Source: Naegleria gruberi (taxonomy: Eukaryota). Taken from it: 64,000 nucleotides of DNA. Below are positions 36,885 through 64,000 of the stretch, one piece after another (positions within the stretch are counted from its first letter, which is position 1; every line of letters begins with the position of its first letter). The notes under the pieces are model-generated. The model saw only the letters and a program-made list of their open reading frames with translations, had not been told where the DNA came from and searched no databases. The stretch lies in assembly GCA_000004985.1 (NCBI GenBank), contig GG738893.1; one strand, 5' to 3'. Both the position numbers and the translations under genes were made by a program.

Positions 36885-39287
36885 ATGGGCTCAAGTTGTT
36901 TAGGGGAAATAAAAAAGGCGAAAAAAATGAACAAGTTTAACAAAAGGCTTGGCGGGCTCAAGAGTCTTTTGCACTTGTTGAACAACAAGAAATCTTCATC
37001 ATCATCACTTGCTCGCCTCTATAGTATTAGTTTTTCAATAGTAAAAGGATCTCCACTATCCGTATTCAATCAGGAAACTGGCTCTTACCAGGAGACCCCA
37101 ATTTTCTCTGTACAAAGAAATAATACAGCAAAGCCTACCGAAGTGGCAACTAAACAAACAATCAACTTGACAAAATATGGTTCACATCATGAACACAACA
37201 AAATTAAAGGAATTAAACCTATTCCTATACAAACAAGGAAGGAAAATATCGAGTCTTCGAATGCTTTTATTGCTTCTTCTGCAAGAATTTTGCTCAACAA
37301 TAGAAAGTTCGAGGATGTCATCAATTTAATCAAAAGTTCTTGTCCTAAAGATGAGAATGGTGATTTGGATATAAAAACAATAGCTTCACAGGAAGCTGGT
37401 ACCGAAGTATTATTAAAATTACATCAAGCGTATGCAGCAATGAAAAATTTGGAAGAAATGAAAAAAATTATACAACACATAACAAATCCTTTAATGTACA
37501 ACAAATTTCAAGGTGAAATTATCAAACATCATGCTGCAACTGATAATCATGTTGAGGCTTTAAAATTATTGGGGAATATGGCTTATATTCCTTATTGGAA
37601 TTTGATTTTCTTGGGCGTAACCAAATTGGTAGTTTACCGAATACCAGAGTCAACCCATGAAATTATTACTTTTTTAAATCAATACATCGAGAACCACAAA
37701 CATGAAATCAATAACACTATTTCAGAGCCCAGTCAACATTTAAAGGATTTACCAGCAAATTATTCTATCAAGGATGTAATTATTAGGATTAGAAAATTCT
37801 TTGACGGTACAGGTTATGAATTGGATAGAGTAAGATTTGCGCTAATGACAATAGAGGCATTGTCTTTATTGGAGGATTTTGGAACAATGGAAATTTTGTT
37901 TAATATATTAATTGATAAGAATGAAAATAATGCTGATGTGTTATCTAAACTTAAAGGAATAATGATGCACAGCCTTATTTCTCTGGGAAGATATGAGGAT
38001 GCTCTGTCTGTATTTTTTGATATCAAAACTCCTCCAAATATTAGAACCTATGAAAAGCTAATGCACGTATATATTGGCATTGGCCATTACGATTTTGCAA
38101 TCTACTTGTGTGAAACATATGTAAAAAATCCAACAACAGAAATTTATGTTTTATTGATCAAAGCTCATATTTTGAAAGGAAATATTGAAAAAGCAGAGTA
38201 TATTTTAAGAGATGTTATTGAAAATTCAAAACTTACTGATGATTCTCAGATAGTAATGAAAACTTTGCTCATGAGTGCCTATGCTGAGGCTGGTATGATT
38301 CAGCAAGTTCAAAAATTATTTGATTCAATTGAAAAACCGGATGCAAGATGTTATAACGAGTTGATGAAAGCTTATTGTCATATTGGTGACACTAAGAGAG
38401 TTAAAGAGATTTTCCAATCAGTTCCATCTAAAGATGCTGTCAGTTTCTTGTATTTATTAGATGGTTTAGCTATTGATGGAGATTCATCTACCGCTTTGAA
38501 ATTCTATAATTTAATACCAAATCCCAACCATATCCATGCAGATGCAGTGGTGAGAGCTTTACTGGCAGATACAAAGAGTGGATTAGATGGAGCTCTAAAT
38601 TTCTTTAACAAACTAAGAAATCCTTCAATATTGACTAGAAAGAGAATATTAGGAGCCATTTCTAAAGCAGGTGATTTGGAAAACGCTTTGAGTTTTTTCA
38701 AAACTATACCAAATCCTGATACAGAATGCTTTGGTCTATTGTTGAGAACATTTTTCTATACCCAAGAGCGTTATTTAAGCCGTGCTGAGGAATTTTTCAG
38801 TAGAATACCAAATCCAGATGCACAATGTTATGCCAGTATGATTAGTATTTATGGAAGATCTGGAAGATTAGATTTGGCTGAAAAAATGTTACATCAATAT
38901 CCATCTCCTTCAACACTTATTGCATTCTTTTATGCCTATTTTTCAAATAATCCAAAAGAGTCTTTCTGGGAAAAGTATGAAACACTTGAAAAACTTTATC
39001 CACGTTGTTTTGATAAGCCAGTTTATTTAGCATCTATTAAGGAAGCTGTTAAATATAAGAAAAAAAAACAAAGTATAGCTTTATTCAGAATTTATTTACA
39101 AAAAGTTCAAAACAAACAAACTAGGGATCTTTTAGGTTTGCTTTTGTTTATTGCAAAAGAAAGTTCATATCGGGAAAATGAGACTTTAACTAAAGAGATT
39201 ATTGATGCTGTTCCAAATTGCATTGCAACACCAAATACTTTGGGACAAATCAAGGAAATTGCTTTTGAAATTGAACAATTAATATAA
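36885..39287 (+). CDS. PPR-like (pentatricopeptide-type) helical repeat protein, 800 aa, probably organellar.
   Basis: Repeated units of about 35 aa with PPR-like signatures (ARCYNELMKAYCHIGD, IRTYEKLMHVYIGIGHYD, AQCYASMISIYGRSGRLD). The N-terminus is basic and hydroxylated. Confidence 0.55.
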   Translation: MGSSCLGEIKKAKKMNKFNKRLGGLKSLLHLLNNKKSSSSSLARLYSISFSIVKGSPLSVFNQETGSYQETPIFSVQRNNTAKPTEVATKQTINLTKYGSHHEHNKIKGIKPIPIQTRKENIESSNAFIASSARILLNNRKFEDVINLIKSSCPKDENGDLDIKTIASQEAGTEVLLKLHQAYAAMKNLEEMKKIIQHITNPLMYNKFQGEIIKHHAATDNHVEALKLLGNMAYIPYWNLIFLGVTKLVVYRIPESTHEIITFLNQYIENHKHEINNTISEPSQHLKDLPANYSIKDVIIRIRKFFDGTGYELDRVRFALMTIEALSLLEDFGTMEILFNILIDKNENNADVLSKLKGIMMHSLISLGRYEDALSVFFDIKTPPNIRTYEKLMHVYIGIGHYDFAIYLCETYVKNPTTEIYVLLIKAHILKGNIEKAEYILRDVIENSKLTDDSQIVMKTLLMSAYAEAGMIQQVQKLFDSIEKPDARCYNELMKAYCHIGDTKRVKEIFQSVPSKDAVSFLYLLDGLAIDGDSSTALKFYNLIPNPNHIHADAVVRALLADTKSGLDGALNFFNKLRNPSILTRKRILGAISKAGDLENALSFFKTIPNPDTECFGLLLRTFFYTQERYLSRAEEFFSRIPNPDAQCYASMISIYGRSGRLDLAEKMLHQYPSPSTLIAFFYAYFSNNPKESFWEKYETLEKLYPRCFDKPVYLASIKEAVKYKKKKQSIALFRIYLQKVQNKQTRDLLGLLLFIAKESSYRENETLTKEIIDAVPNCIATPNTLGQIKEIAFEIEQLI

Positions 39288-42161: not shown

Positions 42162-42233
42162 TTTTTTTTAGAATTTAGAATGCCCGCCCAAGTCAACTAC
42201 AAAAAGATCAATTCAATTTAGTACAAGAACACT

Positions 42234-43655
42234 TTACATGTTTTCTCCTTCTTCTGCATCACTATTTGTTTCAATTTCAAGATGTGTTAATTGTTTCATT
42301 TGACTTAAATAATCAGCTCCCTCTGTACCAATATTATTGTAACTAATATCAAGATCTGTCAATTGTTTCAATTCACTAATATACTTTGCTCCCTCATTAC
42401 CAATATTATTGTATTGAATTTTAAGCATTGTCAATTCTTTCAAGTTACTAATATGTTTTGCTCCTTCAGCACCAATACCATTGTAACCAATTTGGAGAAT
42501 TGTTAACTTGTTCAATTCACTTAAATATTTTGCTCCTTCATCACCAATCTCAGTGTAGCTCACATAAATACTTGTTAGATTTTTCAATTCACTTAAATGT
42601 TTTGCACCTTCATTACCAATACGATTGTCACCAATAAAAAGAACTGTTAAATTTTTCAATTCACTTAAATATTTTGCTCCTTCATCACTAATTAATCTAT
42701 TCCCTTGCATATAAAGCTTTGTCAATTCTTTCATGGTACTGATATGTTTTGCTCCTTCATCATCAATATCATTGTTCTCAATAAAAAGATTTGTCAATTG
42801 CTTCATTTCACTTATATATTTTGCTCCTTCTGAACGAATCAAGCTATCACTAATGTAAAGATGTGTTAATTGTTTCATTTCACTGATATATTGAGCTCCT
42901 TTATCACCAAGGCTACTATAACTGATATTAAGAACTTGTAATTGATTCAATTCACTAATATATTTTGCTCCTTCTGTACCAATATTATTGGACTCAATAT
43001 CAAGAGTTGTCAATTGTTTCAAGTCACTTATGTATTTTGCTCCCTCTGTACCAATATTATTGTAACTAATATCAAGATCTGTCAATTGCTTCAATTCACT
43101 AATATACTTTGCTCCTTCTACACCAATATCATTTTCACTAATATTGAGATATGTCAAGTTTTTCAATTCTCTTAAAAATTTTGCTCCTTCTGTACCAATA
43201 TTATTGGCATTAACATAAAGATTAGTTAATTGTTTCATTTCACTAACATGTTTTGCTCCTTCTACACCAATACCATTTTCATTAGTAGTACCCTCAATAT
43301 TGTCATCAATTTCAAGACTTGTAACATGTTTCATCAATGCAAAAACTTTAAAATCAAACGCATCAGTCCTTCTCTCAAATTCAAGTGTTGAAATATTTGC
43401 TAAAAACTGTCCTTGTGGTGGTTTCATTGTATTTTCACATCTTAAAAAAACTTTTGACCTTTCGGATATGACAGCAAACCACTGTTTGGAAACAAGTGCA
43501 CAATTTACCATAAATTGAAAGTCAGAGTTGAAACTTAAAATTTCAAAGAGTACATCATCATAAAATAGGTTAGGCTTGTGTTTTGGTGATTTGTTGGTAT
43601 CAACCATGTGATGATTTTCACCAATCACTTCTTCAGGCATTTTTATTTCATCCAT
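42234..43655 (-). CDS. F-box / RNI-type leucine-rich-repeat protein (FBXL-like SCF substrate adaptor), 473 aa.
   Basis: The N-terminus DDVLFEILSFNSDFQFMVNCALVSKQWFAVIS matches the F-box consensus. About 14 highly regular 24-aa repeats N-N-I-G-x-E-G-A-K-Y-I-S-E-L-K-Q-L-T-x-L-x-I-S follow. Repeat DNA is similar enough to produce mirror ORFs on the opposite strand. Confidence 0.7.
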   Translation of the reverse strand: MDEIKMPEEVIGENHHMVDTNKSPKHKPNLFYDDVLFEILSFNSDFQFMVNCALVSKQWFAVISERSKVFLRCENTMKPPQGQFLANISTLEFERRTDAFDFKVFALMKHVTSLEIDDNIEGTTNENGIGVEGAKHVSEMKQLTNLYVNANNIGTEGAKFLRELKNLTYLNISENDIGVEGAKYISELKQLTDLDISYNNIGTEGAKYISDLKQLTTLDIESNNIGTEGAKYISELNQLQVLNISYSSLGDKGAQYISEMKQLTHLYISDSLIRSEGAKYISEMKQLTNLFIENNDIDDEGAKHISTMKELTKLYMQGNRLISDEGAKYLSELKNLTVLFIGDNRIGNEGAKHLSELKNLTSIYVSYTEIGDEGAKYLSELNKLTILQIGYNGIGAEGAKHISNLKELTMLKIQYNNIGNEGAKYISELKQLTDLDISYNNIGTEGADYLSQMKQLTHLEIETNSDAEEGENM

Positions 43656-43987
43656 TATTCACATGCTAAATATGAAACACTATTTATTTAAGATGTGAGA
43701 AGTGTTACTCTCCATCATTTTTGTAAAATATATTTGGACATGTTGAAAATATCAGGGTATTTGCATGACAATCATTGTAACACATGATGGATAAATTGTG
43801 TTTTGATTGTTACATTATTTGGAGGTTTAACATCTTGGAAAACCGTAGATGATAAGGAAGATCACTCACTTTCATTCAAATGGAGGTTGTGAATAAGATT
43901 GGACTGTATTTAATTAATAAAACTTGTAATTAATAAAGTAAATTGAACAAATAAAAGTGAAAGGTTAGTAAAAATTCAAAAGATGTT

Positions 43988-44860
43988 TTATTCTGCAATA
44001 TTCTTTTTCAACCAAGTAATAATATTTGTCAAGCAAGTATCCAAATTCATGGCAGAACTATCGTGTTCATCTTTGATAGTTTCGAACATTGTCTTTTCTT
44101 CAAGAGTTAAAGACATTTCTTCGAAACTCTTGTAAGAAAACTTTTGGATGTGTTTCTTATCTACTTTTGCTTCGAACAAATTTTGAATTGTATAGACCTT
44201 TGGAAGTGGGTCTAATTTTTCTTCATTTTCAATAATTACATTACAATCATAAAAGTGTCTGATATATCTGTCTAGAGGAATATCAGTAACTTTTCTTCGT
44301 TTGACAATTGCATCCATTTTCTCTAATAATGTTTCCAATGGATGAACACAATCAATTTCAATCTTTGGACACTTATTTAATTGGTGGATTACTGATCTGA
44401 CATCTCGTGTAACTACACAATTATGTTCATCTAAACCAATGTCAATATAAATCTCACCACCTTCCAAATTTCTAACTTGGGATTCAAATTTTACCAGAAA
44501 TACACAAGTTTCACATTCAGTGTCTAATTCGTTTTTAATTTTCTCAACGACAACAAAAGGAATTAGTCTCTTTGTGTGTTCAAACACGGCGGCAAAGTAC
44601 TTTTCTCTTTCTTTCTTGTTTTGTGGCATGTGATACTTTAACTCTAAATCCATGAAATTGTTCTTTTTTGGAATTAGTTTTAGATCCATATCCTTGGATT
44701 GTCTGTTGGATATGTGAAATACCTTAGAGAGAGTAGAGCCACCTTTGTAGATTACATCAAACTTTCGAGATAGCCAGTAGAGAATGTGGCTTCTCCAGTA
44801 ATCAAGTTCTAAATCATACAATTGTTTTGACATATCAACAAAATCACTACTTGCTGACAT
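43988..44860 (-). CDS. Nucleotidyltransferase of the AbiEii/AbiGii (DUF1814) toxin family, 290 aa, intronless.
   Basis: Pol-beta-type NTase signature VIYKGGSTLSKVFHISNRQSKDMDL, compared with the family consensus KGGTAL...R.SEDID. The size is typical of AbiEii. Codon usage and GC match the surrounding host genes. No cognate antitoxin-like ORF is adjacent. Confidence 0.5.
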   Translation of the reverse strand: MSASSDFVDMSKQLYDLELDYWRSHILYWLSRKFDVIYKGGSTLSKVFHISNRQSKDMDLKLIPKKNNFMDLELKYHMPQNKKEREKYFAAVFEHTKRLIPFVVVEKIKNELDTECETCVFLVKFESQVRNLEGGEIYIDIGLDEHNCVVTRDVRSVIHQLNKCPKIEIDCVHPLETLLEKMDAIVKRRKVTDIPLDRYIRHFYDCNVIIENEEKLDPLPKVYTIQNLFEAKVDKKHIQKFSYKSFEEMSLTLEEKTMFETIKDEHDSSAMNLDTCLTNIITWLKKNIAE

Positions 44861-45828
44861 TTTTTTTGTTGATGATTAGTTTTTATTCGAAATGACTTGG
44901 TGATGTGGACATTCTATGGGAAGAGACACAAATTACTGTTACAAGTGGGGAGGAGGGGTAAAAATCTTACTTTTAATTTAGGGGTGTTGGCTAGGAAATT
45001 ACGAAATAATTGGGGGGTAAAAACATTATTTATTTAATTATTTCTTAACTAATTCTTCAAATTGTGATTTCTTTGGTACTCCACGTTTCTAATTCTATAG
45101 TGGTTCTTCTTCTTGTTCCAATTCCTTCTCTTGTTAAACCTATGGAATTATAGTTGCTGGGAAAGTCTTCTTAACTTTTTCTTTGGTTATTTTTGTCCGT
45201 ATGTGGTGAAGTATAAACCATTGTATTGTGCTGGTTGTTGTTGATTAATCTTCCTTTCTATTTACAAAAGTGTCTTCTAAGGTAATGAATCATCAGTTTG
45301 TACCAATGGTTATCCTTAATTAATTTCTTGATGGTAATTGCTGTAGGAATTCATGAAGTGAAGGTAAGGCGTGTTATTGTTGTTGTGGAAACATTTGGAA
45401 GTGCGTGCTTTGTTTTGGTAGAGGGTTAGTTGTATTGAGGTTTTTTTAAAATATTTTTTTACTTTTATTAAGCTAGCTTTTACAATAAAGAAAAATCAAG
45501 CAAGCTGAAAGCGAAGCTTGGTTTTTCTTAAAATTTTAATAAAATTACATTACACACGAGTGGGGTGGAGAAAATATTATTTTACATACGAGTGGGGTCA
45601 AAACGAAGGACCGTAATTAATGTCTCTTCCCTATTGCATCAAACTGGCTTTTAGAACGTTAGTACTTTTCAATAGCTCAAACATTACAATAAATTGTTAA
45701 ATTTTACTATCCTTTCCTTTCTGGTATTATATATCGAAATTATGAGAACTGTGATCAATAACATAAATTAATAAATGAAGAGGAATTAACCGTTTGGCGC
45801 CTTTTTTAAAAATTCAAATTACGAAAAA

Positions 45829-47650
45829 ATGAAACAAAGACCAACACCTCAAATTCACGATTTATTGAATTCACCTCCACTAACAATAAAACCCCTCAGA
45901 AAAAGCAATAAATCCCTTGATGAAGATGAGAGGTTGTATCATAGTTATTCCGATAGAAAATTAAGACAAAGCATCGGAAAGACAATGGTTGAACTCAGCA
46001 GCCAGAGCAGGGATGTTTCTTCAAGTACCCAAAAAAGACCATCATCTGCAATGAGTGCAAGCATTGTATCACTTCAAGGACCTACACTTGCATCAACAGG
46101 ACAATTCATAATGACTGATTCTGTTCAGTCAACTAAGGGTTATAAATCCCAAGAGGAAGCCAAAATGGAAGATGAATATATCAAGAACTTACAAAAACAA
46201 ATAGGTTTACTTTCTACAGAGCTTCAGTTGCAAAGAAAGATGAATGATGAAACTGAGAAAAAGCTTCATGAAAAAACTGAACCAATTGAGGATCCAATTC
46301 TTACTATTAAGAAAAAGTTTGCTGAGAAGGATGAAAATTATAATCAATTCATTGAAAAATTCAAACAAGAAATTGCTGATAGAGAATCAAAGGTTTGTTT
46401 AATAGAAATTGCTTCTTAACACTTTGAAGATTGTGAAATTGAAAGAAAAATACAAAAAGTGGAAAGATAAGAATTTGAAAGAACGAGAACATTCCAAGTT
46501 GGAAATTCGTACCCTACATGAGAAGTACGTACCAGAGGTCATTAAATTGGAAAAGCAAATTGATATGGTTAATTTGAGAGTTAAACAAGAAACAAAAGAG
46601 AATGAAAGAAAGAATGATGACATTAAAAGTTTCTTGAAAGAAATTGGAGAAATTTCAAAGAAGGTTGAATTTATTCAAATGCAAAAAGACCAAGCAGAAA
46701 AACAACTTCAACCATTAATGGATGAACTGAATATAGTAAAGAAGGAATTACTAAGTTATAATTCTAATAGAGATAAAGATAAAAACGAGATTGAATCTTT
46801 GAAGGGAAGACTGTCAAAATATGAAAAGGAATGGGAGGATGCTCTTCATAACTTGAAGAAAAAAGATTTGGAGACAAAACAGCTTCAATTAGATAACGAA
46901 CTCGTTGCTACAGAAAGAGACAAACTGAAAGAACAAGTGAAAACTCTTAAGGAGAAAAATAATGAACAAGAAACTCAAATTGCAAAACTCCAGACAAAAT
47001 TAAACGAAACACAATGGGATCTTACAAGAGTAAAGGTTAATTATGAGAATTTGTTCAAAGAGAAAACAAATCAAGAAAAAGAAAATGATAAGGCACAAAC
47101 AGAATATAAGGACAATAAGATCAAATATGAAGAAATGAAAAGACAATTCAAGGAAATTCAAGATAAGTTACAAAAGAAGGAGGAAGAGCTTAAATCTTTC
47201 CTCCACACTCAATTTGAAGCTCTTAAACTTAAAAATTCTCAGCTTGAAGAAGCTCTTAGAGAACTCTCCAAAAAAAATGAAGAAATTAGAATTGATAACA
47301 AGAAGATTCAAGAAGAAAATGATAATCTTCAAAGGAATAACAAATTATTTGAGGATGAAAAAGAGCAATATGAGAAGAATGAAATTCAAAGAAAGATTCT
47401 AATCAAGAAACTCAAAAATCAACTCAAACTAAGTCTTGCAGTACAAAATGTGGACAGACAAAACCTTTCTACATTGATGAATTCAAATGTAAATGTTGCC
47501 CAATCAATCAAACAACTTATGGACATTATGAAAGAAAGCAAAGATATTTTAGCTGAAGAAAAGGAAGCAGAAACAATGCCAAATTCTAAACCTCCAAGAC
47601 CTGAAAGTTCATTTGAAGCCTGGGTTTCCAATGGTAAGAAACAAAGGTAA
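45829..47650 (+). CDS. Long K/E-rich coiled-coil protein of about 600 aa. Two exons, 45829..46392 and 46430..47650, with a 37-nt intron.
   Basis: GTTTGT donor at 46393 and TTTGAAG acceptor ending at 46429. The frame moves from 1 to 2, as expected for a 37-nt intron. Heptad-rich sequence runs throughout. Confidence 0.55.
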
Positions 47651-47743: not shown

Positions 47744-48526
47744 ATGTCTAGATTGCAAATTAATATAACTGGATTCGGACCATTTGCTGGAGTGAAGGAA
47801 AATCCAACTACTTTGATCATATCAAAATTAAAAGATTGTGAATTTTGCCAAGTTCCTATCACTTATAATATTGTTGAAACATCAATGAAAGGAGTTGATG
47901 AATATTTTGGAAATCAAGATGGAAATTCCGATCTGACTAGAATTTATATTCATTTAGGAGTGAGTGGAAATACAATCATGTATGAAATTGAAGAGAGAGG
48001 AAAAAACGAAAAATCATTTAGAGTTCCTGATGAGCAAGGAGAAGCTCCTCAAAAAGAACCAATTAATAATAATTTATGTATTGATAATTATTTAAATTGT
48101 AAATTAAACGTGGATCAGTTAGTTGAGGAAGTGAATGAACATCTTGAAAATTGTAAAACTCATATTCCACTCTCGGATTTAGTATTAGATTCTGCAAATG
48201 ATAAGATTAAATATTCTCTAATTGTAAAATCTACAAAAGATGCCATTTCAGAACAAGAAGATATCAGAAAATTGGAAGATTATACATCTAATTTGGAAAA
48301 ATGTGTTTCTTTAATAACTAAAAATGGAAGTTTTTGCAAAAAATCAAATAATGCTGGATTATTTATTTGTAATTATTGTTACTATTCATCACTACATCAT
48401 ACTCAACCCAAACATAATTGTTATAGCCTTTTCATTCATGTACCTCCACATGATTTAATTAATATTGATAATCAAATTGAATTTGTAAAGGCTCTTGTCC
48501 ATTGCATTGTCAAACAACTCTCCTAA
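47744..48526 (+). CDS. Pyroglutamyl-peptidase I (pyrrolidone-carboxylate peptidase, family C15).
   Basis: INITGFGPFAGVKENPT (N-terminal PCP motif), GLFICNYCYYSSL (catalytic Cys region) and HVPP (catalytic His). Length 260 aa. Confidence 0.8.
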   Translation: MSRLQINITGFGPFAGVKENPTTLIISKLKDCEFCQVPITYNIVETSMKGVDEYFGNQDGNSDLTRIYIHLGVSGNTIMYEIEERGKNEKSFRVPDEQGEAPQKEPINNNLCIDNYLNCKLNVDQLVEEVNEHLENCKTHIPLSDLVLDSANDKIKYSLIVKSTKDAISEQEDIRKLEDYTSNLEKCVSLITKNGSFCKKSNNAGLFICNYCYYSSLHHTQPKHNCYSLFIHVPPHDLINIDNQIEFVKALVHCIVKQLS

Positions 48527-48681: not shown

Positions 48682-50545
48682 ATGCATCAGCAGTCGAATA
48701 ACAACCATTCACAGCAGCCAACGATCAATCAAACAAGTGGCGGCTCTGGTCATCAACAAAATAAGAAGAAGAATAGATTTGAATCATCAGGTGGTCCTAG
48801 ATTTACAAATGTTGTAGTTACTACAAGTCCTGCTTTTTATTCATTAAATCATCCTTCAAATACTACATCATCATCATCCAATCAACAACAACAAGGAGTT
48901 GGTTCATCAAATGGAGGAAATTCCCTCATGATGACTGGTGGTAATTCTTCTGTTTTATCATCAAGTGGTTCCAATAATAATAATAGCAGCAATACAATGA
49001 ACAATAATCAACCTAAAAGCAAGCCTTATAAAAGTCTTGTCTCTAAACCCGTTGTTCAAATCAAAGGAACACCACAAATATTGGCAAAGAAACCAAGTAC
49101 AGCTGAATCATCATCAAATTTATCTAATAATAATACTATCAGCAACACTCCTGTTGGCAATACACCAAATCAACCTACTATACTACAAAAGAATCCATCA
49201 GAGCCTTCCTCTAGAAGAATTAATCAACATTTACAACCAGAAATTAGTCAAAACTTTACCAGTGGTTCATCACCAACTACTCTAAATACTGGTAGTTTAC
49301 CTCTTACAACTGTAAAATCATCATTGGATGAAAATATTAACAAGCAAGACTCTCCACAAACAACAAATGGTTCTTCTAATGTTGAAAAGAAGAAGGCTTC
49401 TATTGAAATGGTTCCATTGTCTTTTGATAAAAAGTGCTTGAATTTAATTCAAGAAAATTCATCTGGAATGTATAATACAATCCTTGAACTTCAATCAAAT
49501 CAAAACTTACAAGCCATGTCAAATTTATTTCCTAATGATAAGCAAGTTTCTACAGAAAGTAATAATTATTCTGTTATCGGAGTTATTGGAAAACAAGGAA
49601 GTGGAAAATCTAAAATTTTAAACTCATTGATTGGAAGTGGAGCTGAAATTTTCCCACAAGAAGATTTGGAATGTTTTTTGGATTGCAAATACAAAACTAG
49701 TGGTATTGATATCTATAGAACATCAGAACAACAAATCTTTATCGACACTCAACCATTATTTTCATCACAAATTCAACATTCCTTTAATGGAATGAGTATG
49801 AATTCTCTTATGAAACCATTTGAAACATCAGTTGAAGCTGTATCAATTGCTGCCTTGGAAAGTTTTATTGATATTACAAGTTTACAAATTGCATTGTTTG
49901 TATTTAGTGTTTGTCATGTTGTACTTGTAGTAGTTGATCATCAAGCAGATTCACTTGAACAATTTAAAATGTATCAATTCATTCAAACTATTAGAATGTT
50001 ACAACAAGGTGTTCCAACAATTTCACAATGTGGAAAGAGTTCTTCTCAACAAAAACCAACTCTAGAAGGTCATGTTCCAGAAGTTATTTTTGTTTACAAT
50101 AAGGTTAGCCCAACAGATATGAGTGAATTGAATATTAAACATACAGAAAGTTTATTGGAAAGCTACTTTACAAGTACAAGCTTTAGAAAGAATGGATTTA
50201 TTCATCCACATATGTGGCACCATCAATTTAAGAAGAATGACATTGTCAATTTCTTTATGATTCCAATGGAATCTTCAAAGGTACGAATTTTAACAATTGT
50301 GTTATTAATAATTCATCTCTCAATATTTCATTAATATTAAATTAATATAGATTAAGGATGAATACAAGGATTCTATCAATTTATTAAGAAAAGGAATTCA
50401 AAATATGCCAAAACCAAACTTGAAGAAAATGTCTCAAAATGAATGGTTTGGAAATTCTGTTAGAAACTTTGAAGTTATCAAAAAGAGTTACTTTTTACAA
50501 GAATATATTAGAAAGATTACAAGTAGCATGTCCATTCACAATTAG
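48682..50545 (+). CDS. P-loop NTPase-domain protein with a Q/N/S-rich N-terminal region (SMG9-like arrangement; family assignment tentative). Two exons, 48682..50280 and 50351..50545.
   Basis: Walker A VIGVIGKQGSGKSKILNSLIG. GTACGA donor at 50281 and ATATAG acceptor ending at 50350 (70-nt intron). The frame moves from 1 to 2. Confidence 0.45.
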
Positions 50546-50822
50546 GAAAACAATATTGATTTATTGAAAAAACAATTGAACACATTTGAGTATTACAAAA
50601 CATTTTGATTTTTGAAAATTGAAGAATTGAAAAATTCAACAAATTAAAATCACAATTTGAAACTCACAATTTATACATGTGAAGAATAAACATTTTATGG
50701 AAGAACCTAATTCATGTTTTTTCAAGTTGCATTGTCCATATCATTAAATGATACTAAAAAGGCATGAAAATATCAAATGACCTTTCGAATAAAAAATTAA
50801 GTGATTCTTTCATAATTGAAAT

Positions 50823-53131
50823 GTGATTCTACTTGAAAAAAAAATGTCATTTCATCACAACAATGATGGGAGAGATCCGACCAATCATCACCATCCAGAA
50901 AAACAAGAGCAACCAACATCAACATCATCATCATCTCGACTACGCCAAGAAATTCCATCACTAAACTTAACTGAAATTAATAATATTTTTCCAACAACAT
51001 TAACAACAATAACGGAAAACAGTACAATTCATCAATTATCAATAACAAGTTCTGACAATAACAGTTTTGAAGAACCATCAACATCAACTACAACATTAAA
51101 TAGTTGTTCTAATAATAATAATAATATTTCTAATAATAGTAATTCTGATAATAATAATGAAAATATAAATTATAAAGAATTATATGAAAAGGAAGTTGAA
51201 AAGAATAAATTATTAACAACTCAACTTGCTATAATAAATTTACAAAAACAAGATGAATTTGAAATTATTAAAATTATTGAAAATGAATTAAATGATAAAA
51301 TTAATTTAAATTTTATTAAATTTAAATTAAATCAATTAAAAAATTTAAATCAAGAACAAGTATTTACAAATGATTCAATTTTAAACGATTATTCTAAACA
51401 TGAATTAACTAAATTTGAAAATGAAATTTATAAATCTATTGATAAACATCCAATTATAGAAAAAATGACAAAATTAGAAAGTGAAATTAATTTTTTAAAA
51501 TATTCATTAAAATATTCAAATAATTGTTCATCATGTACTGAAAAACAAGAATATTCAGCTAAAATAATACAAAAAGCATTTCGTTCATTTCGTATAAGAA
51601 ATCGAATGAAAATAATTTTTCCCAAATATGACATTATTTCACAACGTAATTCACTAATTAGTGAAATAGTTCAAACAGAACAAACCTATGTTAAATCTTT
51701 AACACTAGTTCAAAGACTATATATAGATCCATTAAAAAATTCAGATTTAACAGATACAATGAGATTTAATTTAACAATTTCACAAATTCAAAAAATATTT
51801 AATAATTTATCAACAATTTTATCAATGCATCGAATTTTCTTGATAAATTTAGAACAAAAATTGAAAGAATGGCCAAATGTTTTTATTGGTGAAAGTTTTA
51901 TGAATCAATCTTTCTTTTTCCTTTTTTATGTTGAATATATAAATGGTTATAATGAATCTTCAAATACTTTGAGAGAATTGAGATTGAAAAATAGGGAATT
52001 TTTAACATTTTTAAATGAAACTAAAAAACATAAGGAATGTAAAGGTTTATCACTTGAATCTTTTTTAATTTTACCAATTCAAAGGTTTGTTTTTTTTTAA
52101 ATACTTTCATTACAATAATATTTAAATACTAACATTACAATAATATTACAATAATATTTAAATACTTTTATTACAATAATATTAAAATAGATTACCAAGA
52201 TATAAATTACTATTAAAAGGAGTATTGAAACATACATTACCTGATCATACAGATTATCAAAATTTAAAATCTGCCTATAATAGAATAAGTGCCATCAATA
52301 ATGCAATTAATTCTAAAAAGAAGGAACATGAAACTTATTTAATTATCAACAAAATGTTCAATGAAATGAAAATATTTTCAGTTCAACAAGATTATCATTT
52401 GTAAAGTATANNNNNNNNNNNNNNNNNNNNNNNNNNNNNNNNNNNNNNNNNNNNNNNNNNNNNNNNNNNNNNNNNNNNNNNNNNNNNNNNNNNNNNNNNN
52501 NNNNNNNNNNNNNNNNNNNNNNNNNNNNNNNNNNNNNNNNNNNNNNNNNNNNNNNNNNNNNNNNNNNNNNNNNNNNNNNNNNNNNNNNNNNNNNNNNNNN
52601 NNNNNNNNNNNNNNNNNNNNNNNNNNNNNNNNNNNNNNNNNNNNNNNNNNNNNNNNNNNNNNNNNNNNNNNNNNNNNNNNNNNNNNNNNNNNNNNNNNNN
52701 NNNNNNNNNNNNNNNNNNNNNNNNNNNNNNNNNNNNNNNNNNNTTATATTGAACAGGAGGGTGTTATTCATGCTTTATCATTTGAGAGAGAATCACCAAT
52801 TGCCAATACTCACATTGATTGGTCAAAGAAACTCTACAAACAACTTCATTTAACTAAGGAAGATGAACAAATTAATAATGTTAAACAATTTGAAATGAGA
52901 GAAATTTTGAGAATTTGTGATCAGGTATTTCACAAATTTAGTACAACCTCCTCATTGAACAAATTGGAATCAACAGTTTTTGAAGAACCTTCACCTAGAA
53001 ATTCAATGATGAAAACTCTTTCATTCCTCAAGAAATCACCTTCACTCACTGCTGTTAAACATACAGAAGATGAAGAACATGAAGTTAAGAAATTAATTGA
53101 TACCATACAAGTTAATACTGAACATTTTTAA
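50823..53131 (+). CDS. Rho guanine-nucleotide exchange factor (IQ motif + DH domain + probable PH domain). The gene spans the assembly gap and has at least one intron (about 52087..52198).
   Basis: The N-terminus is N/S-rich. The IQ-like motif is AKIIQKAFRSFRIRNRMK. The DH domain starts LISEIVQTEQTYVKSLTLVQRLYIDPL. The end of the DH domain continues after the intron as LPIQR|ITKIKLLLKGVLKHTLPDHTDYQNLKSAYNRI, the classic PRYxLLLKELLKHT. The downstream ORF after the gap (52744..53131) is in the same orientation. Confidence 0.6.
52391..52743. other. Assembly gap (353 N).
   Basis: Run of n characters. It interrupts the RhoGEF gene. Confidence 0.99.
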
Positions 53132-53231
53132 CTAATTCAATTGAATTAAAAGATTATTTAATAAAATAATTTTAAATTTATTTATTTCAAAAAAACATAA
53201 AATATTCTCAATATTCTCAATATTATTATTA

Positions 53232-55870
53232 TTAAATAGTCAATTTCATTTCATTAATTTCTTGTTCACGTTGTTCCTTCAAACCATGAATTGATTCCAA
53301 AGCAAAAGGTGGGAAATAAGCATAACTAAATTTATCTTGTAATTGATTATTAAAAATTGATAATTCCTCATCTTGACTATAAAAAGTGGAATGAATTAAT
53401 TGATTATTATTTGAATCTAATGGATTAAATTTAGTCTTGTAATGAATATTCCAATATAAAGCATAAACAATTGATAAAATTAATAATAAACACATTAAAA
53501 ATAAATGAATAAAAGTAACATCTCCTGATTTGGCAAAGAATAACATGACATAAAATTGAGCAAATATTATACAAAAGAATGTCATTTGTACAATTAATTT
53601 GTTACGTTCTCTATAGGAAGTAATATCAGGTGATAATTTGTAACGTGCTTTATCATTTTTAGAACATAATCTTGAAATATTATATCTATCAATTAAATGT
53701 TTTACAATAAAATAGAAAAATCCAATTGGTAAAATTAATGGAACAAAAACTGAAAATGTTAAAATAATTCCAAAGAATGCAATCATATAACCATATTCTA
53801 ATGGTAAATCAAATTCACTAATTTTAGTTGCATTTTCCTTTTCCTCTTCAGTTACACTTTTAAATCTCAAATAAAAATAAATAATTAAATCTTTTAATCT
53901 AATCATATCAACAAAACATCCTAATAAAGAATATTGAATTGTATAATTAATAAAGAATGCACCTGATTGTGGTAAAAATAAATAATCAAATAAAGCTTGC
54001 CAATTTGAATCACCTGATCCACTAACTGAATGACTAAATTGTTCAAAATATCTAATAACACCATCTAATGAAGTTAATAATAAAACTGGAAGTATTAATG
54101 TTGATAAAACAACATAAATAAATAATCTTAATAAATAAACACTTGATTCTTCTGAATAGGATTTATATTTTTCAAATCTAGTTAATAGTGGTATAATCAT
54201 TGGTAATAATTGTGCAATAATAAATAATAATAATGTTGGTAAATAGTGAAATAAAATATCACCTGTATATCCACTTGCTTCTTTAATTTGATTAAATGCT
54301 TTAGCTGCTTGTGGAATACGATTAGCAATTGATTGAATAGATGAAACAATTGCCAATGGACTTGTAAAAAATAATAAGAAAAATACTAATAGTAAATTTA
54401 CAATTGCAACTCTAAATGTTCTTTGATTTTTAGATAATGAAAAATTTGACCAATTTAAATCTTGTGGTTCAAATGTTTTCTTTTCAATACGAAATTCAAT
54501 TAAATCATTTGAATCATTTGAATCATTGATACAAGTAGTAGTAGTATATTAGTAGTAGGAGTAGTATTATCATTCATCATATTATTATTCAATTTAAATA
54601 ATTTTAAACCAGTTTCATCCATTGCTTTACATTTAGATGCATCTTGAATTGATTTAAAAATAACATGTCCATATCCAGTTGATTTTGGTTGATTTTTAAA
54701 AGTTTCTTCCCATTCCATAATTAAATGTTCTAATTTTACTTTCTTTTCATTCCAATAATTTAAAGCATCAACTCTTTCAATAATTTTAGAACAACATTTA
54801 CCTTTTTTGGATGATTCGAATAATTTAATTAATTTAACATGTTTGTTTGTTTGATTTTGAACATATTCATAATGTTTAATTTGTTCAATTGAATTTTCAA
54901 AAGATTCTTGTAATTCAATTCTTTCACTTGTATCATGAATTAAACGACATGAATAAATGTTTAAATTTGGAAATATAGATTCAACTGATTTTCTAAATTT
55001 AGTATTATCAGTAATTTGAATTGGAATATCTTTTAATAAAACACTATAATTACTAATCATATTTAAAGTACTATTTGAATCATTTTCAAATCCATCCATA
55101 TTTATATATTGATTAACAAATTTAGAATTAACAAATCTATACATTAAATAAAATATTAAAATTGAAAATAAATAAAATAAAATAACATGTGCATATAATC
55201 TATCTGTTAATGATAATACCATATTAACACTTGTCTTGTATAAAAATGAATCAGTTTCAATATTTGTACTATTTTGATTCTTTGAAATTACATTTAAATT
55301 ATTCATTGTATTAGAATTACTAATTTGTCCTGTTAAATGTAATGGTAATAATACTGATAATCCAATTAATGTAAATAATCCTGTAAATAATATCATTTGA
55401 TGTGAATACCATAAATAAACACTAACTTCATGTCCATACAATTTACCAATTCTTTCATATTCACTTTCAAATATTAAAAATTGATAAATTCTTTTAAAGA
55501 ATCTTTTAAATACATTTCTTTCATTCTTATCATCATTTATATTAGTATTACCACTTCCAATATTATTATTAGTATTATTAATATTAAAATTATTATTGGA
55601 TGATGATGATTTTTTACGTTTCCATAAACGTAAATTTCTCAAACAACAAAATAAAATCAACAAGCCTAAAACAAAAACACAACCATCAAGAATTAAAATA
55701 AAACTAACACCGGAATGATTAGTTTGTAATTGTAAAGCATAATTAGTTTCATTGATACTTGATGATGATGCTGATGCACCACCACCATCGGCACCAATGG
55801 CCAATAATGATGATGATAAAATACCACCGCCACCAACAGCTATTGGTGATGACGTCATTTTAATGATCAA
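53232..55870 (-). CDS. OSCA/TMEM63/CSC1-family mechanosensitive (calcium-permeable) channel. An apparent frameshift or short intron lies at about 54360-54560 inside an ACT/AAT repeat.
   Basis: 54500..55870 encodes N-terminal TM helices plus a cytosolic domain (YLWYSHQMILFTGLFTLIGLSVLLPL, RLYAHVILFYLF). 53232..54356 encodes the 7TM C-terminal block (RSN1_7TM-like: LLPMIIPLLTRFE, YLLRLFIYVVL, FFINYTIQYSLLGC). The two ORFs are collinear. Confidence 0.65.
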
Positions 55871-56934
55871 ATTTGTTGTGTCTAGTCTTCAAGTAATTAT
55901 ATTAGTGCAAACTTTAATGATGATCAAAAAAGCAGGCAGTGGAGAAGGAGGATCAGTTATATTACTACTGCTTCTTTGATTATTTTTTTGTTAATGATAT
56001 TGATGATTGTGGATGAATATGATAATTGCGTTTGTAATTTTTGAAATTAGTTTTTGAGAACTACAGTTTAGTTTCGAACTGTAGATGAAATTTTCGAATA
56101 ACTGTAGTTCAAATGTATAAAATTTCAAGTTACTACATGTTTTGTAAGAATGTAATGGACTCCATTCACTCAACCTGCAAAATCATAACCATTCTATAAA
56201 AGTACAAATTTAAGATTGTAGGCTCTCTATTGCAATGTTCTGCATTTCTACATTTTCATCCAATTAAATATCAAAAGACTCTAACGCATTCCATTGTCCG
56301 CTCAATTACTCCAACACTAACTATTGAGGACACCCCAAATATTCCCAATTTAGTAGAACTCTTTCTCCAGTAACAATGCAACATGATGAACTCAATTATT
56401 GTGCGTGATGATGTATTTTAAACATGTACTGTTTGTAGCATCAAGAGAGGAACATTGTTTCATATGAATGGACAACGGAATTGCATCATTATGAACCATC
56501 ATTATAAAATCTTTCCATCTTGCTGATTCGCAAAATATCTTAGTTATATCTTCTCAGTCACTATATTGATTACCAACATTAAAATTTTCCTTAAATATTT
56601 TCCATCTTGTTGTGGAGAGAAAGAGCGATGGGTGGTAGCTAGGCTTGGGTTGGTTGCATTGTTTTTTTGGCTATGTGTTGAGGATGGTTGAAAACGTAAC
56701 AAGCCTTGTTGAAAATCTTCAAAAAAAAAGAAACAACAACTACCCACTCACAACAATAGAGTTACTGCTATTGAACATAACCAGTTGCACTTTTGGTAAT
56801 TTTTTAAATCCTCATTTGTACATATTTACGAATAGACATATTGGGGAAGGACCATTTTGCATTTCACTTAGTAAATACAACAACACTGCAACACTAATTA
56901 TAATACATCTATATATTGAATATTTTGAATAAGA

Positions 56935-59315
56935 ATGAGAATATTATCGAGGTGGTCACCTTATTATTATCAATCAAATGATAAACCTAAATATAAAGTT
57001 AATGGACATTGGATGTTAATTAAAACAATAGTATTAATACTATTATCTATATCAATATATTATATTACAAAACATTTTATAATAGATTCAAATCAATCAA
57101 CAATTACTGGAAATACATTAACTACTGAAAACAATTATTATTCATCATTAACACATCATACACAATTTCATTCACAATATATGAATGAAACTATTACAGA
57201 AAATGAACCATCATCGAATGATAATACTAAAATTTGTAATTTAATTGCAAGTTATGAATTGGATCAATGTCAATTTGCTATGGATAATTGTAATGCACCA
57301 ATGGGTGGATTTTTAAATTATATTTTTATTAGATATTGTACTTTTAAACAGTTAGAACCTTTATTTTATATTTGTTCTTTATTTTGGGTTATTTTCTTAT
57401 TTTACATGTTAACATGTAAGTTTATATATATACTAGTATTTAAATTGAGTATTTTATGTTAAATATTATTGGAATTACTATATATATAGCAACTGCTGAG
57501 GATTTCTTTTGTCCAAGTTTAGCTGAAATTTCAAGAATATTAAGATTACCACCAGATGTTGCTGGTGTTACTTTCCTAGCCTTGGGAAATTCATCACCAG
57601 GTATGTTTTTAATTAATACTATTAATAACTTTACACTTAATGATTTAACTATTATTAAATATATAGATATATTTTCTATATTAGCAGGTATATTTTCTGG
57701 ATCATCTGGATTTGGATTAGGTGAACCAATTGGAAGTGGATTTGTTTGTGTTTCAGTTTTAATTGCAATTGTTTCATTTGTAGTTAAAGATGCAACAGTT
57801 TCAGCATTTCCATTTTTGAGAGATGTTATTACTTATTTAATTGGTGTTTTATTTGTATTTTTAATTGTTATATTTCAGGGTTCAATTAATTTATGGCAAA
57901 GTATTACATTTCTAGTTATTTACTTTTTATATGTTTCATTTGTAATTGGTTGTAAATTTTACAATGATTACAAAAATAGAAAGAAGAAAAATCAACAAGA
58001 AGATCAACAAGATAAAGATGATGCAAACGAGGAAGAAGAAGAATCTAATTCAAGTGGATGGTTAGAAGGAAAGAAACCAATATTACAATGTAAGAATATT
58101 GATGAAATTCCTGAAAATGTTAAAAAACAATTGAAATCCAAATTGTTTTATGGAGCTGTTTATAATCCTAAATTTGGAGTTGCTTATTTATCTAATGAAC
58201 CTATTAATACTATTCCAAAAGGATGTTGTACTGAAAGGACACCTCTCAATAGAAAATCATCTTTACAAGAAGAAGATAATTCTATTAATAATATTGAAAT
58301 GAATGGATCAATTATCATTGAAAATCACTTTACAATTAATACATCATCAAATGATAATCAAGATTTGATTCACTGTCATGAACATGATCATCATCATTTC
58401 AGATTTTCATCATTTAAAGAAATAATTTCAACTAAATATCAAGAATTTATTGAATGGATTGAGTGGAATGAAAAATCCAAATTAGATAAGATATTCTTTA
58501 TAATAGAAGCACCTTCAATTCTAGCTAGAAATTTAACAATTCCAAAGGCAGATCCAAATGATTGGAGTAAATTATTTGCCATTCTATGTCCAATATTCAT
58601 TCCACCATTTACTTTATTTACAATTGGATATATTTCATTGAATATTCCAGGTAGTGAATTTCCAATTTGGGTATTAGGATCAATGTGTGGTTTATTCATT
58701 TCAATTTTAATTCATTTTACATCAAAGAAATGTAGAAAACCATTTTATCACATAATATTTGTAATTAGTTCATTCATCATGTCAATTTTATGGATTTTTA
58801 CAATTGCCAATGAATTGGTGAATGTTTTAAATTCATTTGGTATTTTATGGAGTATTAGTGATTCTGTATTATCTATTGTTTTATCAATTGGTAATACCTT
58901 CTCAGATATGGCTGCTGATTTGGCTGGTATGTTTATTTTTTTTAATACTTTTTTAACATGTTTACAATATTTTACAATATTTAACAATACTATTTAAATA
59001 GTTGCAAGACAAGGTTATGTTGAAATGGCAGTTGCTGCTGCATATGCAGCACAAGGAATGAGTTTATTAATTGGATTAGGTATTGCTACAACTGCTAATT
59101 TTGTCATGACTCGTAAACCATTTGAAATTGAATTTTCACCAACTTTAATTGTTACTTTTATATTTTTATTGGCAACTTTAATTTCATCTTTAATTGTTAT
59201 TCCAATTGCCAAATTTAAAGCTCCTAAAATATTTGGATTATTTTTATTGACTATATATCTTGTATATTTGGTTATTACAATATTAATTGAATTTAAAATT
59301 TTATTAAATCATTAA
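56935..59315 (+). CDS. Cation/Ca2+ exchanger of the CaCA superfamily (CCX/NCLX/NCKX-like), with at least 4 exons.
   Basis: Alpha-1 repeat GVTFLALGNSSP after a 70-nt intron (57423..57492). A second intron lies at 57600..57684. Alpha-2 repeat SIVLSIGNTFSDMAADLA, then the intron 58925..59005 (GTATGT...AATAG). The final exon has the terminal TM helices and ends at 59315. Confidence 0.65.
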
Positions 59316-59366
59316 AATTTAATTTATTTTTATTTATTTATTAATTTAAATTGTTTTTATTTTACA

Positions 59367-60806: not shown

Positions 60807-61225
60807 ATGAGAGAGTGTAATGCGGTCAAATTTAATGTTTTGGAGGAGGAATTACTTAACGAATCGCCGATTAATATTATATTGGATTTGTTGTCACAGC
60901 TGTGGTATTGATGATAGAGTTCAAATATTTGGATATTTCAATCCTTTCGTCGGGAATATAACCTTATTACAACTCTTTTTATTGTTGACTATGTCTTTCG
61001 TTGTGATGATGATACTTAATGAGGGAGGAGGAGATACAGAGGTGGTAGTGGTGATAATCGAATGGTTAAATGAGTTCAGAGTTTGTGTGGACATGATCAA
61101 AACCTTAATCGGCGATCATCAAAAGGCGAAAAACATGTTGATGATTTAAACATTCTCCACTACCTCCTTCTTCTTTCCAATAAATTTATTTTCCAATATA
61201 AATGTAATAACACAGACATTAAATC

Positions 61226-61546
61226 TTATTCTTCATCATTGGAAATGGATGGAACTCTTGGAGTCTTTTTAATGATAACTTTTGGTATTTGTTTCTTTTC
61301 CATTCCAAGTAATTCTCTAACAATTTTAAATCTAATTAAAAAGTAATGAAGTAAAATGTACCATCCTCCAACAATAACTACTAATGATGCTAATAACATG
61401 AATAATCTATATAATATTGGATGATTATTTGTATCATTTTGTTCCGATGGTGATGGCGTTGAACCCATAACAACATTCATTATCATCACCAACATCATTA
61501 TAAATACTAATATTTGTGATGTTCCTTTCAAGAATAGTTTGATCAT
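61226..61546 (-). CDS. Small two-TM membrane protein of 106 aa (hypothetical).
   Basis: Two hydrophobic helices (ILVFIMMLVMIMNVVMG and LFMLLASLVVIVGGWYILL) followed by a basic tail. Confidence 0.3.
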   Translation of the reverse strand: MIKLFLKGTSQILVFIMMLVMIMNVVMGSTPSPSEQNDTNNHPILYRLFMLLASLVVIVGGWYILLHYFLIRFKIVRELLGMEKKQIPKVIIKKTPRVPSISNDEE

Positions 61547-61726
61547 TTTTTTAAAGGCTTTGAACGTGTTGCTTTGATTGTTGGTGAAGACTTGTCATTG
61601 GAATTGCACGTTTTTAGAATAACAGTAACAATACAAAAAATTAATAATTTATAATTAGATTAGGTTTTTTCATACTCATTCAAAGTATGATATTTACATT
61701 GATTAGAGAGAGAGAGAGGGATTTTG

Positions 61727-62025: not shown

Positions 62026-62192
62026 GATGAGTGAGGTGTTGTTGTTTTATTTTTTATTAAATTTATTTCCATTACAAAAAGGCTGACGAACTACAATCGC
62101 ACTTGGTAATCATTTCTCAAACGAGACCTGTAAATTCATCAATCTTGTTTAGGGTAAAGGTACTAATTCATGAATTCTTTGAATATGAAAAT

Positions 62193-63991: not shown

Positions 63992-64000
63992 TTTTTAAAA

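Follow-up and report, generated by a model that had tools for sequence, protein, structure and literature searches.

A solitary AbiEii/MenT-family nucleotidyltransferase gene in Naegleria gruberi, its eukaryote-like relatives and its missing antitoxin neighbour

How does a gene of a bacterial toxin family come to stand alone among the nuclear genes of a protist, and does it still encode a working enzyme? The question is raised by an open reading frame (ORF) in a stretch of 64 kb from the Naegleria gruberi genome (contig GG738893.1, hereafter the window), in which an earlier note, made from the letters of the DNA, had recognized a nucleotidyltransferase (NTase) of the AbiEii/DUF1814 type. The position, the length of 290 amino acids and the ATG start given for this ORF were confirmed (Table 1). 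Its translation is identical to the N. gruberi protein XP_002673146.1 (EFC40402.1, NAEGRDRAFT_51880, UniProt D2VSD5), which is encoded on a scaffold of 337 kb and annotated as "predicted protein" only; a precomputed Pfam AbiEii label on it is already present in public databases. We conclude that the ORF is a genuine nuclear gene of N. gruberi and a full-length NTase coding sequence, and no paralogue of it occurs inside the window. As regards mechanism and ALTERNATIVES, the reading that we favour, with moderate confidence, is that the gene was acquired long ago and has become naturalised, that its product is probably an active NTase of the AbiEii/MenT type, and that the antitoxin neighbour has been lost, with the role proposed in the last section.

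Family membership and active-site residues

The Pfam profile AbiEii (PF08843) matches the protein in one stretch, from residue 39 to residue 266 (profile positions 18 to 223 of 238), with an E value of 7.9e-19 and a score of 69 bits, compared with a gathering cutoff of 22.5 bits; the AbiEii/DUF1814 identity first proposed for the ORF is upheld by this match. Furthermore, 12 AbiEii models of PADLOC recognize the protein, the best of them (PDLC02289) over residues 17 to 269 with an E value of 1.8e-23, and the NCBIfam search of the protein gave no relevant match. We consider the identity and family assignment of the protein very likely to be correct. The earlier wording "type IV toxin family" stands for the toxin family, but the type IV label is now disputed by a 2026 preprint, in which AbiE is moved from type IV to type VII (bioRxiv 10.64898/2026.01.19.700257). 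According to this preprint, the 3'-CCA end of tRNA is extended with nucleotides by the MenT toxins and by AbiEii, which prevents aminoacylation, with AbiEii using UTP in preference to CTP, and the toxins are turned off by an antitoxin-induced autophosphorylation of T65 in AbiEii and of S78 in MenT3 (bioRxiv 10.64898/2026.01.19.700257).

The AlphaFold2 model, obtained from a 15-sequence alignment of the subfamily, is compact (mean pLDDT of 89, pTM of 0.87) and predicts the two-lobed fold of MenT and AbiEii proteins, with a Pol-beta NTase core and a C-terminal helical domain. In the Foldseek comparison of the model with the PDB, MenT4 and TglT/MenT3 rank first, the sequence identity in the structural alignments with MenT toxins being 7 to 16%, while a sequence-profile search of the PDB sequences from the AbiEii subfamily retrieved MenT4 alone, as a weak match. 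These comparisons bear on the suggestion of the earlier note that the protein might serve in immunity or signalling by analogy with other NTases, that is, as a cGAS/CD-NTase/OAS-like enzyme making a nucleotide second messenger. The Pol-beta NTase core is all that the protein shares with such enzymes, although an OAS-like alarmone was raised as one possibility for AbiEii by Dy et al. (2014; PMC3985639). Neither a Mab-21 or CD-NTase profile match nor a close structural match was obtained, which leaves the analogy unsupported and makes a signalling enzyme very improbable.

Residue conservation was judged in the 15-sequence alignment. Its invariant columns include D20-Y21-W22, K39-G40-G41, R53, S55, D57, R85, F89, P174, T177 and K181 of the Naegleria protein, and the columns conserved at 90% or more include H173, A184, R201, H202 and D205. 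Motif I (Y38-K39-G40-G41) fits the hG[G/S] consensus, motif II reads R53...D57-M-D59, and the spacing of 15 residues between G41 and D57 matches the long spacer of the AbiEii family; the string KGGSTLSKVFHISNRQSKDMDL, earlier quoted as the Pol-beta signature, corresponds to residues 39 to 60 and hence spans these two motifs. D59 is an Asp in most rows of the alignment, the exceptions being P0003 (Arg) and P0013 (Asn). D140 (IYIDIG) represents the third acidic position in the Pol-beta active site, where bacterial relatives have Glu (LLEVG) and the eukaryote-like set described below has an invariant Asp. By alignment, D140 would be equivalent to E146 of MenT3/TglT, and entries of the TglT E146Q mutant are present among the structural matches in the PDB.

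Motif III, defined as KLxAaxxR, reads K181-M-D-A-I-V-K-R188, with Ile at the aromatic position, and lies in the conserved HPLETLLEKMDAIVKR helix. Compared with the "+DxxD" pentad, the candidate motif IV region (RHFYD) keeps a basic residue and the final Asp but has His in place of the first Asp, as likewise occurs in the bacterial subfamily (RHYED). In summary, G40, G41, R53, S55, D57, K181, R201 and D205 occupy invariant or nearly invariant columns, and D59, D140 and R188 fall outside them. The motif definitions and the mutagenesis on which this mapping relies were published for the Streptococcus agalactiae AbiEii (Dy et al. 2014; PMC3985639), where, in particular, the K173A and R180A replacements in motif III lead to loss of toxicity (PMC3985639). 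The residues retained in Naegleria coincide with sites at which mutation makes AbiEii non-toxic (PMC3985639) and with the phospho-acceptor: S55, which precedes the first catalytic Asp by two residues (R53-Q-S55-K-D57), aligns with T65 of AbiEii and S78 of MenT3. The sequence bears no sign of enzyme inactivation, and the protein is probably catalytically competent.

A competent enzyme might nonetheless have been repurposed. It is possible to hypothesize that the DUF1814 scaffold acts on a small molecule or an antibiotic, as ANT(2'')-Ia and LnuA do, on a protein or in RNA tailing, as a housekeeping or detoxifying enzyme that, like fungal Pb27 and Helicobacter pylori JHP933, would need no antitoxin. 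However, the Naegleria sequence falls inside the bona fide AbiE toxin subfamily and outside the Pb27/JHP933 and ANT groups, the profile and structural searches of the PDB lead to MenT4 and MenT3, and both the phospho-acceptor position S55 and the toxin motifs are kept. A non-toxic, repurposed enzyme is, in our opinion, rather improbable, also in view of the gene neighbourhoods of the relatives described below.

Host gene and eukaryote-like relatives

The family is overwhelmingly bacterial, and it could be supposed that the gene derives from bacterial contamination or from a chimeric assembly. This explanation is effectively refuted by the surroundings and the composition of the gene. It is separated by 332 bp from a co-oriented F-box/LRR gene and, on the other side, by 968 bp from a divergent coiled-coil gene, on a eukaryotic scaffold, with no gap between it and these neighbours; the sole run of N in the window (52411-52743) is far from it. 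Its GC content is 0.32 and its GC content at third codon positions (GC3) is 0.296, compared with 0.08 to 0.37 in 25 other ORFs of the window, and a leave-one-out index of the codon adaptation index (CAI) type, computed against the pooled codon usage of the window, gives 0.66 (rank 9 of 25), whereas bacterial relatives reach 0.18 to 0.48 on the same scale. Moreover, the gene has no operon partner, and the best bacterial identity is about 28%. This excludes contamination as well as a recent transfer. Hence, what the earlier note had stated about host-like GC and codon usage, eukaryotic flanking genes and the absence of introns agrees with our data, the last point being supported by the single unbroken profile match and by the compact model.

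A phmmer search of 1.84 billion representative sequences gave 109 matches with an E value of at most 1e-3, none of them between 100% and 38% identity, the best non-self matches being the environmental sequences P0002 and P0003; no other named eukaryote was present among the matches of the indexed search. The AbiEii subfamily counts more than 7000 clusters at 90% identity, and all the named matches among the best 120 listed are bacterial, in line with the overwhelmingly prokaryotic distribution previously asserted, so that a horizontal origin is the sensible reading. The nearest bacterial sequences belong to metagenome-assembled genomes of Holophagales, Bdellovibrionota, Myxococcota, Anaeromyxobacter and Planctomycetota (about 24 to 29% identity), and we claim no donor lineage because the neighbor-joining (NJ) tree resolves no sister group.

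Together with the Naegleria protein (P0001), the environmental sequences P0002, P0003, P0021 and P0092 form a set of five eukaryote-like sequences. The four relatives come from JGI samples 3300030740, 3300030741, 3300030743 and 3300047677, on contigs that are short and possibly error-prone, with a GC content of 31 to 38%. The motif II signature R-x-S-[K/L]-D is common to P0001, P0002, P0003 and P0092 (P0021 has RYSVDCD), and the motifs YI[RK]H[YF]YD and HPxETL are common to most of the five. NJ trees, a crude method, grouped P0001, P0002 and P0003 with bootstrap values of 83% and 69%, the same three with P0092 at 82% and all five at 73%. Compositional attraction as the cause of this grouping is partly countered by Lys/Asn/Ile-rich bacterial members, of the AT-rich type, which keep RFSEDxD and lack the signatures of the clade. 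On the sequence data, we consider the eukaryote-like clade plausible, not secure.

Direct eukaryotic evidence is provided by P0021, in whose contig (L089) a segment of 34 nt interrupts the codons of motif I; removal of the segment restores the motif I frame (...LLDYWRAHALYYIQQKFKIYLKGGYTLS...), and by its sequence it is a spliceosomal-type intron. The same contig ends with TAA TAA TAA, a 3' untranslated region (3'UTR) of 14 nt and a run of A. Thus, the closest relatives of a gene first described as horizontally acquired are other eukaryote-like genes, one of which bears an intron, and the picture of an isolated recent transfer has to be abandoned.

Scans of metagenomes did not reveal further members of the clade, the collection seemingly lacking those JGI metatranscriptome contigs on which the relatives lie, and a scan of IMG/VR with the clade patterns found no viral relative. 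A giant virus or phage as vector was considered and set aside, given this lack of an IMG/VR relative and the weakness of the fold matches in BFVD (Ac18, poly(A)-polymerase-like, TM of 0.3).

Antitoxin partners and the orphan state in Naegleria

The usual arrangement of the subfamily was examined in 80 bacterial loci from GTDB genomes (Myxococcota, Bdellovibrionota, Planctomycetota, Holophagales, many Proteobacteria and Bacteroidota), 65 of which were analysable. In every one of the 65, a co-directional ORF of about 195 amino acids abuts or overlaps the start of the toxin gene, typically with an overlap of 4 or 8 nt. These partner ORFs give weak Pfam matches to AbiEi_4, AbiEi_3_N or DUF6088, and they match the PADLOC AbiEi model PDLC02234 end to end, with E values from 1e-56 to 1e-83.

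Two of the eukaryote-like relatives, P0003 (contig L001) and P0092 (contig L088), are accompanied by a partner of a different make. Their neighbours match the profile of the bacterial partners with E values of 1.5e-13 and 1.1e-08, respectively, over profile positions from about 69 to 193 only, and PDLC02234 with E values of 1e-08 and 3.6e-05, over positions 74 to 188 and 66 to 189 of the 191 in the model. The N-terminal third missing from these matches is the winged-helix (wHTH) domain. Furthermore, the partners are divergent from the toxin genes, different from the overlapping co-directional operon of the 65 bacterial loci. The wHTH domain of AbiEi is needed for auto-repression of the operon, and the C-terminal domain alone neutralises the toxin (Dy et al.; PMC3985639); loss of the former is expected where each gene has its own eukaryotic promoter. 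As far as can be read from the contigs, AbiE is present in at least two relatives as a pair of divergent genes, with an antitoxin that lacks the bacterial DNA-binding domain. Contig L001 starts with a poly-T tract that might represent the polyadenylated end of the partner's transcript but is followed by non-A sequence, an arrangement that is suggestive only. The presence of an antitoxin domain next to the toxin in these relatives implies that the protein needed neutralising after it had entered eukaryotes, which is a further argument against the repurposed, non-toxic enzyme considered above.

No AbiEi-like sequence was detected in the six frames of the window with a profile of the 65 bacterial partners (best E value of 0.66, compared with 2.9e-19 for the weakest true bacterial partner) or with a second profile that also comprised the two eukaryote-like partners (best E value of 2.2), and a search of positions 43600 to 46500 for a remnant, by tblastn, phmmer and a stop-tolerant six-frame scan, was negative. 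The divergent ORF of 196 amino acids upstream of the NTase gene has the right size for an AbiEi protein, but it matches neither Pfam nor the profiles and was rejected. The absence of an antitoxin partner, already noticed at first reading, is thus corroborated for the whole window. The adjoining upstream AbiEi gene (COG5340) that characterizes the two-gene AbiE system is not found there, and it follows that the NTase gene belongs to the toxin family, not to an AbiE system. Since two of the closest relatives keep a head-to-head AbiEi-domain gene, the solitary state is probably secondary, and the simplest explanation would be that the Naegleria lineage has lost the partner.

By analogy with L001 and L088, the spacer between the NTase gene and the coiled-coil gene is the position expected for a head-to-head AbiEi-like gene, and none is present there. 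The spacer is the gene-free region of about 1 kb that, as previously described, borders the NTase gene on the side opposite to the F-box/LRR gene; it presumably houses the promoter, and an Rfam scan of it matched no family. It contains an insertion resembling a miniature inverted-repeat transposable element (MITE). This insertion starts 58 bp upstream of the NTase ATG, and the inverted repeat (I5) that delimits it is 86% complementary. The terminal 19-mer of the insertion has exactly two copies in the window, in opposite orientation, compared with 0.06 expected by chance, and subterminal repeats containing GGGGT/ACCCC are also present. This MITE-like element is context, separate from the NTase gene.

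Table 1. Features of the NTase gene, of its surroundings in the window and of the relatives' contigs (unless a contig is named, positions refer to the window)
Feature	Position	Strand	Basis or remark
AbiEii/MenT-family nucleotidyltransferase coding sequence, complete, intronless	43988..44860	-	290 aa + stop, ATG start
Motifs I and II, residues 39-60 (KGGSTLSKVFHISNRQSKDMDL)	44681..44746	-	alignment and published motif definitions
D140 codon, third acidic Pol-beta active-site residue (IYIDIG)	44441..44443	-	alignment
Motif III, K181-R188 (KMDAIVKR), in the conserved HPLETLLEKMDAIVKR helix	44297..44320	-	K181, P174, T177 invariant
Motif IV region, R201-D205 (RHFYD)	44246..44260	-	R201, H202, D205 nearly invariant
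Spacer between NTase gene and coiled-coil gene, 968 bp, non-coding	44861..45828	.	no ORF of 50 aa or more
MITE-like insertion, 714 bp	44918..45631	.	22-nt inverted repeats 44918-44939 and 45610-45631 (GGGAAGAGACAC/TnAATTAC...)
Spacer from NTase stop to F-box/LRR start, 332 bp	43656..43987	.	presumed 3'UTR, poly(A) site and next promoter
PPR protein gene	36885-39287		
F-box/LRR gene	42234-43655	-	co-oriented with NTase gene
Coiled-coil gene, 196-aa ORF	45829-46419	+	divergent from NTase gene
Pyroglutamyl peptidase gene	47744-48526		
RhoGEF gene	50823-52100		
OSCA/RSN1 channel gene	53232-55870		two ORFs split by ~143 nt
Na/Ca exchanger gene	57456-58997		
AbiEi-domain gene, 165 aa	L001 94-591	-	head-to-head with P0003, spacer ~494 bp
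AbiEi-domain gene, 190 aa	L088 576-1148	-	head-to-head with P0092, spacer ~396 bp
Intron of P0021, 34 nt, GTGAGT..TAG	L089 130-163		GTGAGTAAGT...GATGTAG; interrupts motif I codons between KG and GYTLS

Concerning the rest of the window, the F-box/LRR neighbour contains repeats of 24 residues (72 nt) of the LRR_6 type, with 11 DNA copies in register at 60 to 77% identity (42169-43335), and resembles an ordinary repeat-protein gene. A sharp break in composition occurs in the segment from 50500 to 64000: GC3 is 0.20 to 0.37 up to about 47.6 kb and 0.08 to 0.12 from position 50823 onward, where the ORFs (RhoGEF, OSCA/RSN1 channel, Na/Ca exchanger and 59367-60806) are still eukaryotic and the bulk GC content is 16 to 26%. 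The break may correspond to an isochore-like domain or to a scaffold join, the run of N at 52411-52743 being nearby. The sole tRNA gene of the window is a tRNA-Leu(CAA) at 23931-24011 on the minus strand.

Relation to known systems and proposed role

The best-known counterparts of the Naegleria protein are the AbiEii toxins of Lactococcus lactis pNP40 and S. agalactiae SAG1285 (PF08843, COG2253), with which it shares the Pfam family, above threshold, the hG[GS] and R-x-[ST]-x-D-x-D motifs, the K...R helix and a variant, so far as it is recognizable, of the acidic motif near the C terminus, as well as a comparable length (290 versus about 300 amino acids) and the combination of a single NTase domain with a helical domain. 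Different from these toxins, the Naegleria gene is nuclear and monocistronic, with no AbiEi gene in 64 kb; its motif II features S-K-D in place of S-E-D, its motif IV is RHFYD, and its product is at most about 28% identical to bacterial AbiEii members. The Mycobacterium tuberculosis proteins MenT3/TglT (Rv1045), MenT4 (Rv2826c) and MenT1 (Rv0078A) are tRNA acceptor-stem nucleotidyltransferase toxins that are paired with MenA antitoxins in operons; the identity of the Naegleria protein to them in the structural alignments is only 7 to 16%.

Solitary NTase-like proteins of the DUF1814 superfamily are represented by Pb27 of Paracoccidioides brasiliensis (PDB 5uvd) and JHP933 of H. pylori (4ok0). 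Both are shorter (218 to 225 residues) and are undetected by the sequence-profile search from the Naegleria subfamily, while the Naegleria protein is a member of the canonical toxin subfamily, in which AbiEi accompanies the toxin at every bacterial locus analysed (65/65). In Colletotrichum siamense JDA-12, PF08843 proteins are reported to form an expanded orthogroup, with 11 members predicted to be secreted (PMC13468701). They are eukaryotic and have the same Pfam domain, the comparison being based on the published description; unlike the secreted members, the Naegleria protein has an acidic N terminus and no obvious signal peptide by eye. The closest toxins are those of the L001 and L088 pairs (P0003 with the 165-amino-acid partner and P0092 with the 190-amino-acid partner), which have the signature residues in common with the Naegleria gene, and likewise a low GC content (33 to 38%), but keep the divergent gene for the AbiEi C-terminal domain.

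According to the reading favoured here, a bacterial AbiE toxin-antitoxin module would have entered a microbial eukaryote long ago. It would then have been rebuilt for eukaryotic expression, as in the uncultured relatives, with the toxin gene head to head with a gene for the neutralising C-terminal domain of AbiEi alone, and in N. gruberi the antitoxin gene would no longer stand beside the toxin gene, leaving the toxin by itself. By homology to MenT1, MenT3, MenT4 and the S. agalactiae AbiEii, Mg2+ would be held by D57, D59 and D140, and the nucleoside triphosphate by G40/G41, R53, K181/R188 and D205. The enzyme would extend the 3'-CCA end of tRNA, or another RNA 3' end, and this extension would block aminoacylation and lead to translation arrest. 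Without AbiEi, the protein would need to be kept in check either by transcription that is low or inducible or through S55 phosphorylation, and the most plausible use would be that of a translation-arrest effector triggered by infection or stress. The data establish the identity, family and fold of the protein, its conserved residues, its place in the genome, the lack of a partner within 64 kb and the gene arrangement of the relatives; it is by analogy with the characterized toxins that we infer enzymatic activity, substrate, regulation and biological role. A bolder and rather unlikely extension is that AbiE, which ranks among the most abundant defences of bacteria against phages, has a eukaryotic branch, in which intron-bearing protist toxins, head to head with an antitoxin devoid of the wHTH domain, constitute a nuclear, tRNA-targeting switch for abortive infection or stress. 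Naegleria would then have dispensed with the antitoxin, and its toxin, controlled by the host at the level of inducible transcription or of S55 phosphorylation, would serve innate immunity as an effector directed at giant viruses or intracellular bacteria.

Several observations weigh against the favoured reading. A literature search found no mention of the gene under any of the four identifiers given above. In the protein collections searched, no orthologue from other annotated proteomes of Naegleria or heteroloboseans was present, so that conservation at the genus level and purifying selection are not demonstrable. The identities within the eukaryote-like clade are merely 20 to 31%, and with Dayhoff-6 recoding its bootstrap values drop to 11 to 30%; because support is removed in this way, we call the clade moderately supported. 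In addition, several of the environmental relatives appear damaged. Contigs L087 (about 690-705) and L089 (about 621-628, A8) each require a one-base correction in a run of A to restore the C-terminal half, at a homologous Lys-rich spot just after motif III, where the frameshifts could represent sequencing or assembly error, decay or slippage. In P0003 (L001, about 1062-1090; same sequence on L002), an in-frame TAG occurs seven codons past the only upstream ATG, inside the conserved N-terminal helix (MKKERFN-stop-LVQKVAAQ) of a gene that ends with TAA, and motif II, KDIRI, has lost the second Asp. The TAG could reflect stop-codon reassignment in the source organism, a pseudogene or an assembly error, and overall the damage fits decay as well as sequencing error. 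Moreover, an antitoxin gene may exist elsewhere in the N. gruberi genome, the absence described above covering 64 kb. Finally, an unrestrained MenT-like toxin should be harmful, and an intact orphan may therefore mean that the protein is non-toxic in its host, for instance by acting on another substrate.

Part of this evidence would also be expected if the gene were an evolutionary relic, that is, a horizontally acquired toxin gene, now without its antitoxin and with little or no expression, on the way to becoming a pseudogene, whose ORF is intact but has no current function. The lack of an orthologue in the other annotated Naegleria proteomes searched, the missing partner gene together with a MITE-like element so close to the ATG, and the frameshifts, in-frame stop and lost catalytic Asp of the nearest relatives are all consistent with such a relic. 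On the other hand, the 290 codons are intact in a genome of 32% GC, where stops arise easily, all the catalytic and family-specific residues are kept in a model that is well folded, and the codon usage is fully ameliorated, which indicates long residence without decay. We consider a relic unlikely and retain a naturalised and probably active NTase as the preferred reading.

The occurrence of an AbiEii domain in a eukaryote is not in itself new, given the reported expansion in C. siamense (PMC13468701) and the solved structure of fungal Pb27, a member of the DUF1814 superfamily (bioRxiv 10.64898/2026.01.19.700257). Within the searches made, what appears to be new is the presence in a protist of a canonical-subfamily member that keeps all its catalytic residues, a small eukaryote-like clade around it that includes an intron-bearing member, the head-to-head pairs with an AbiEi domain devoid of wHTH, and the lack of a partner beside the Naegleria gene.

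The passage of bacterial defence genes into eukaryotes is under active study, the cited cases being cGAS/CD-NTase, viperin and Argonaute. To this the N. gruberi locus adds a concrete and culturable starting point, as the species is kept in the laboratory and has an intact gene for an AbiEii/MenT-type enzyme. The environmental loci suggest a route by which a toxin-antitoxin operon may have been re-engineered, through divergent genes, an intron, loss of the repressor domain and retention of the neutralising domain. If active, the enzyme would represent a toxin of eukaryotes that modifies the 3' end of tRNA, and the question would be how the cell survives without the antitoxin; if it is inert, the locus would be a clean and datable example of the amelioration of a bacterial toxin gene.

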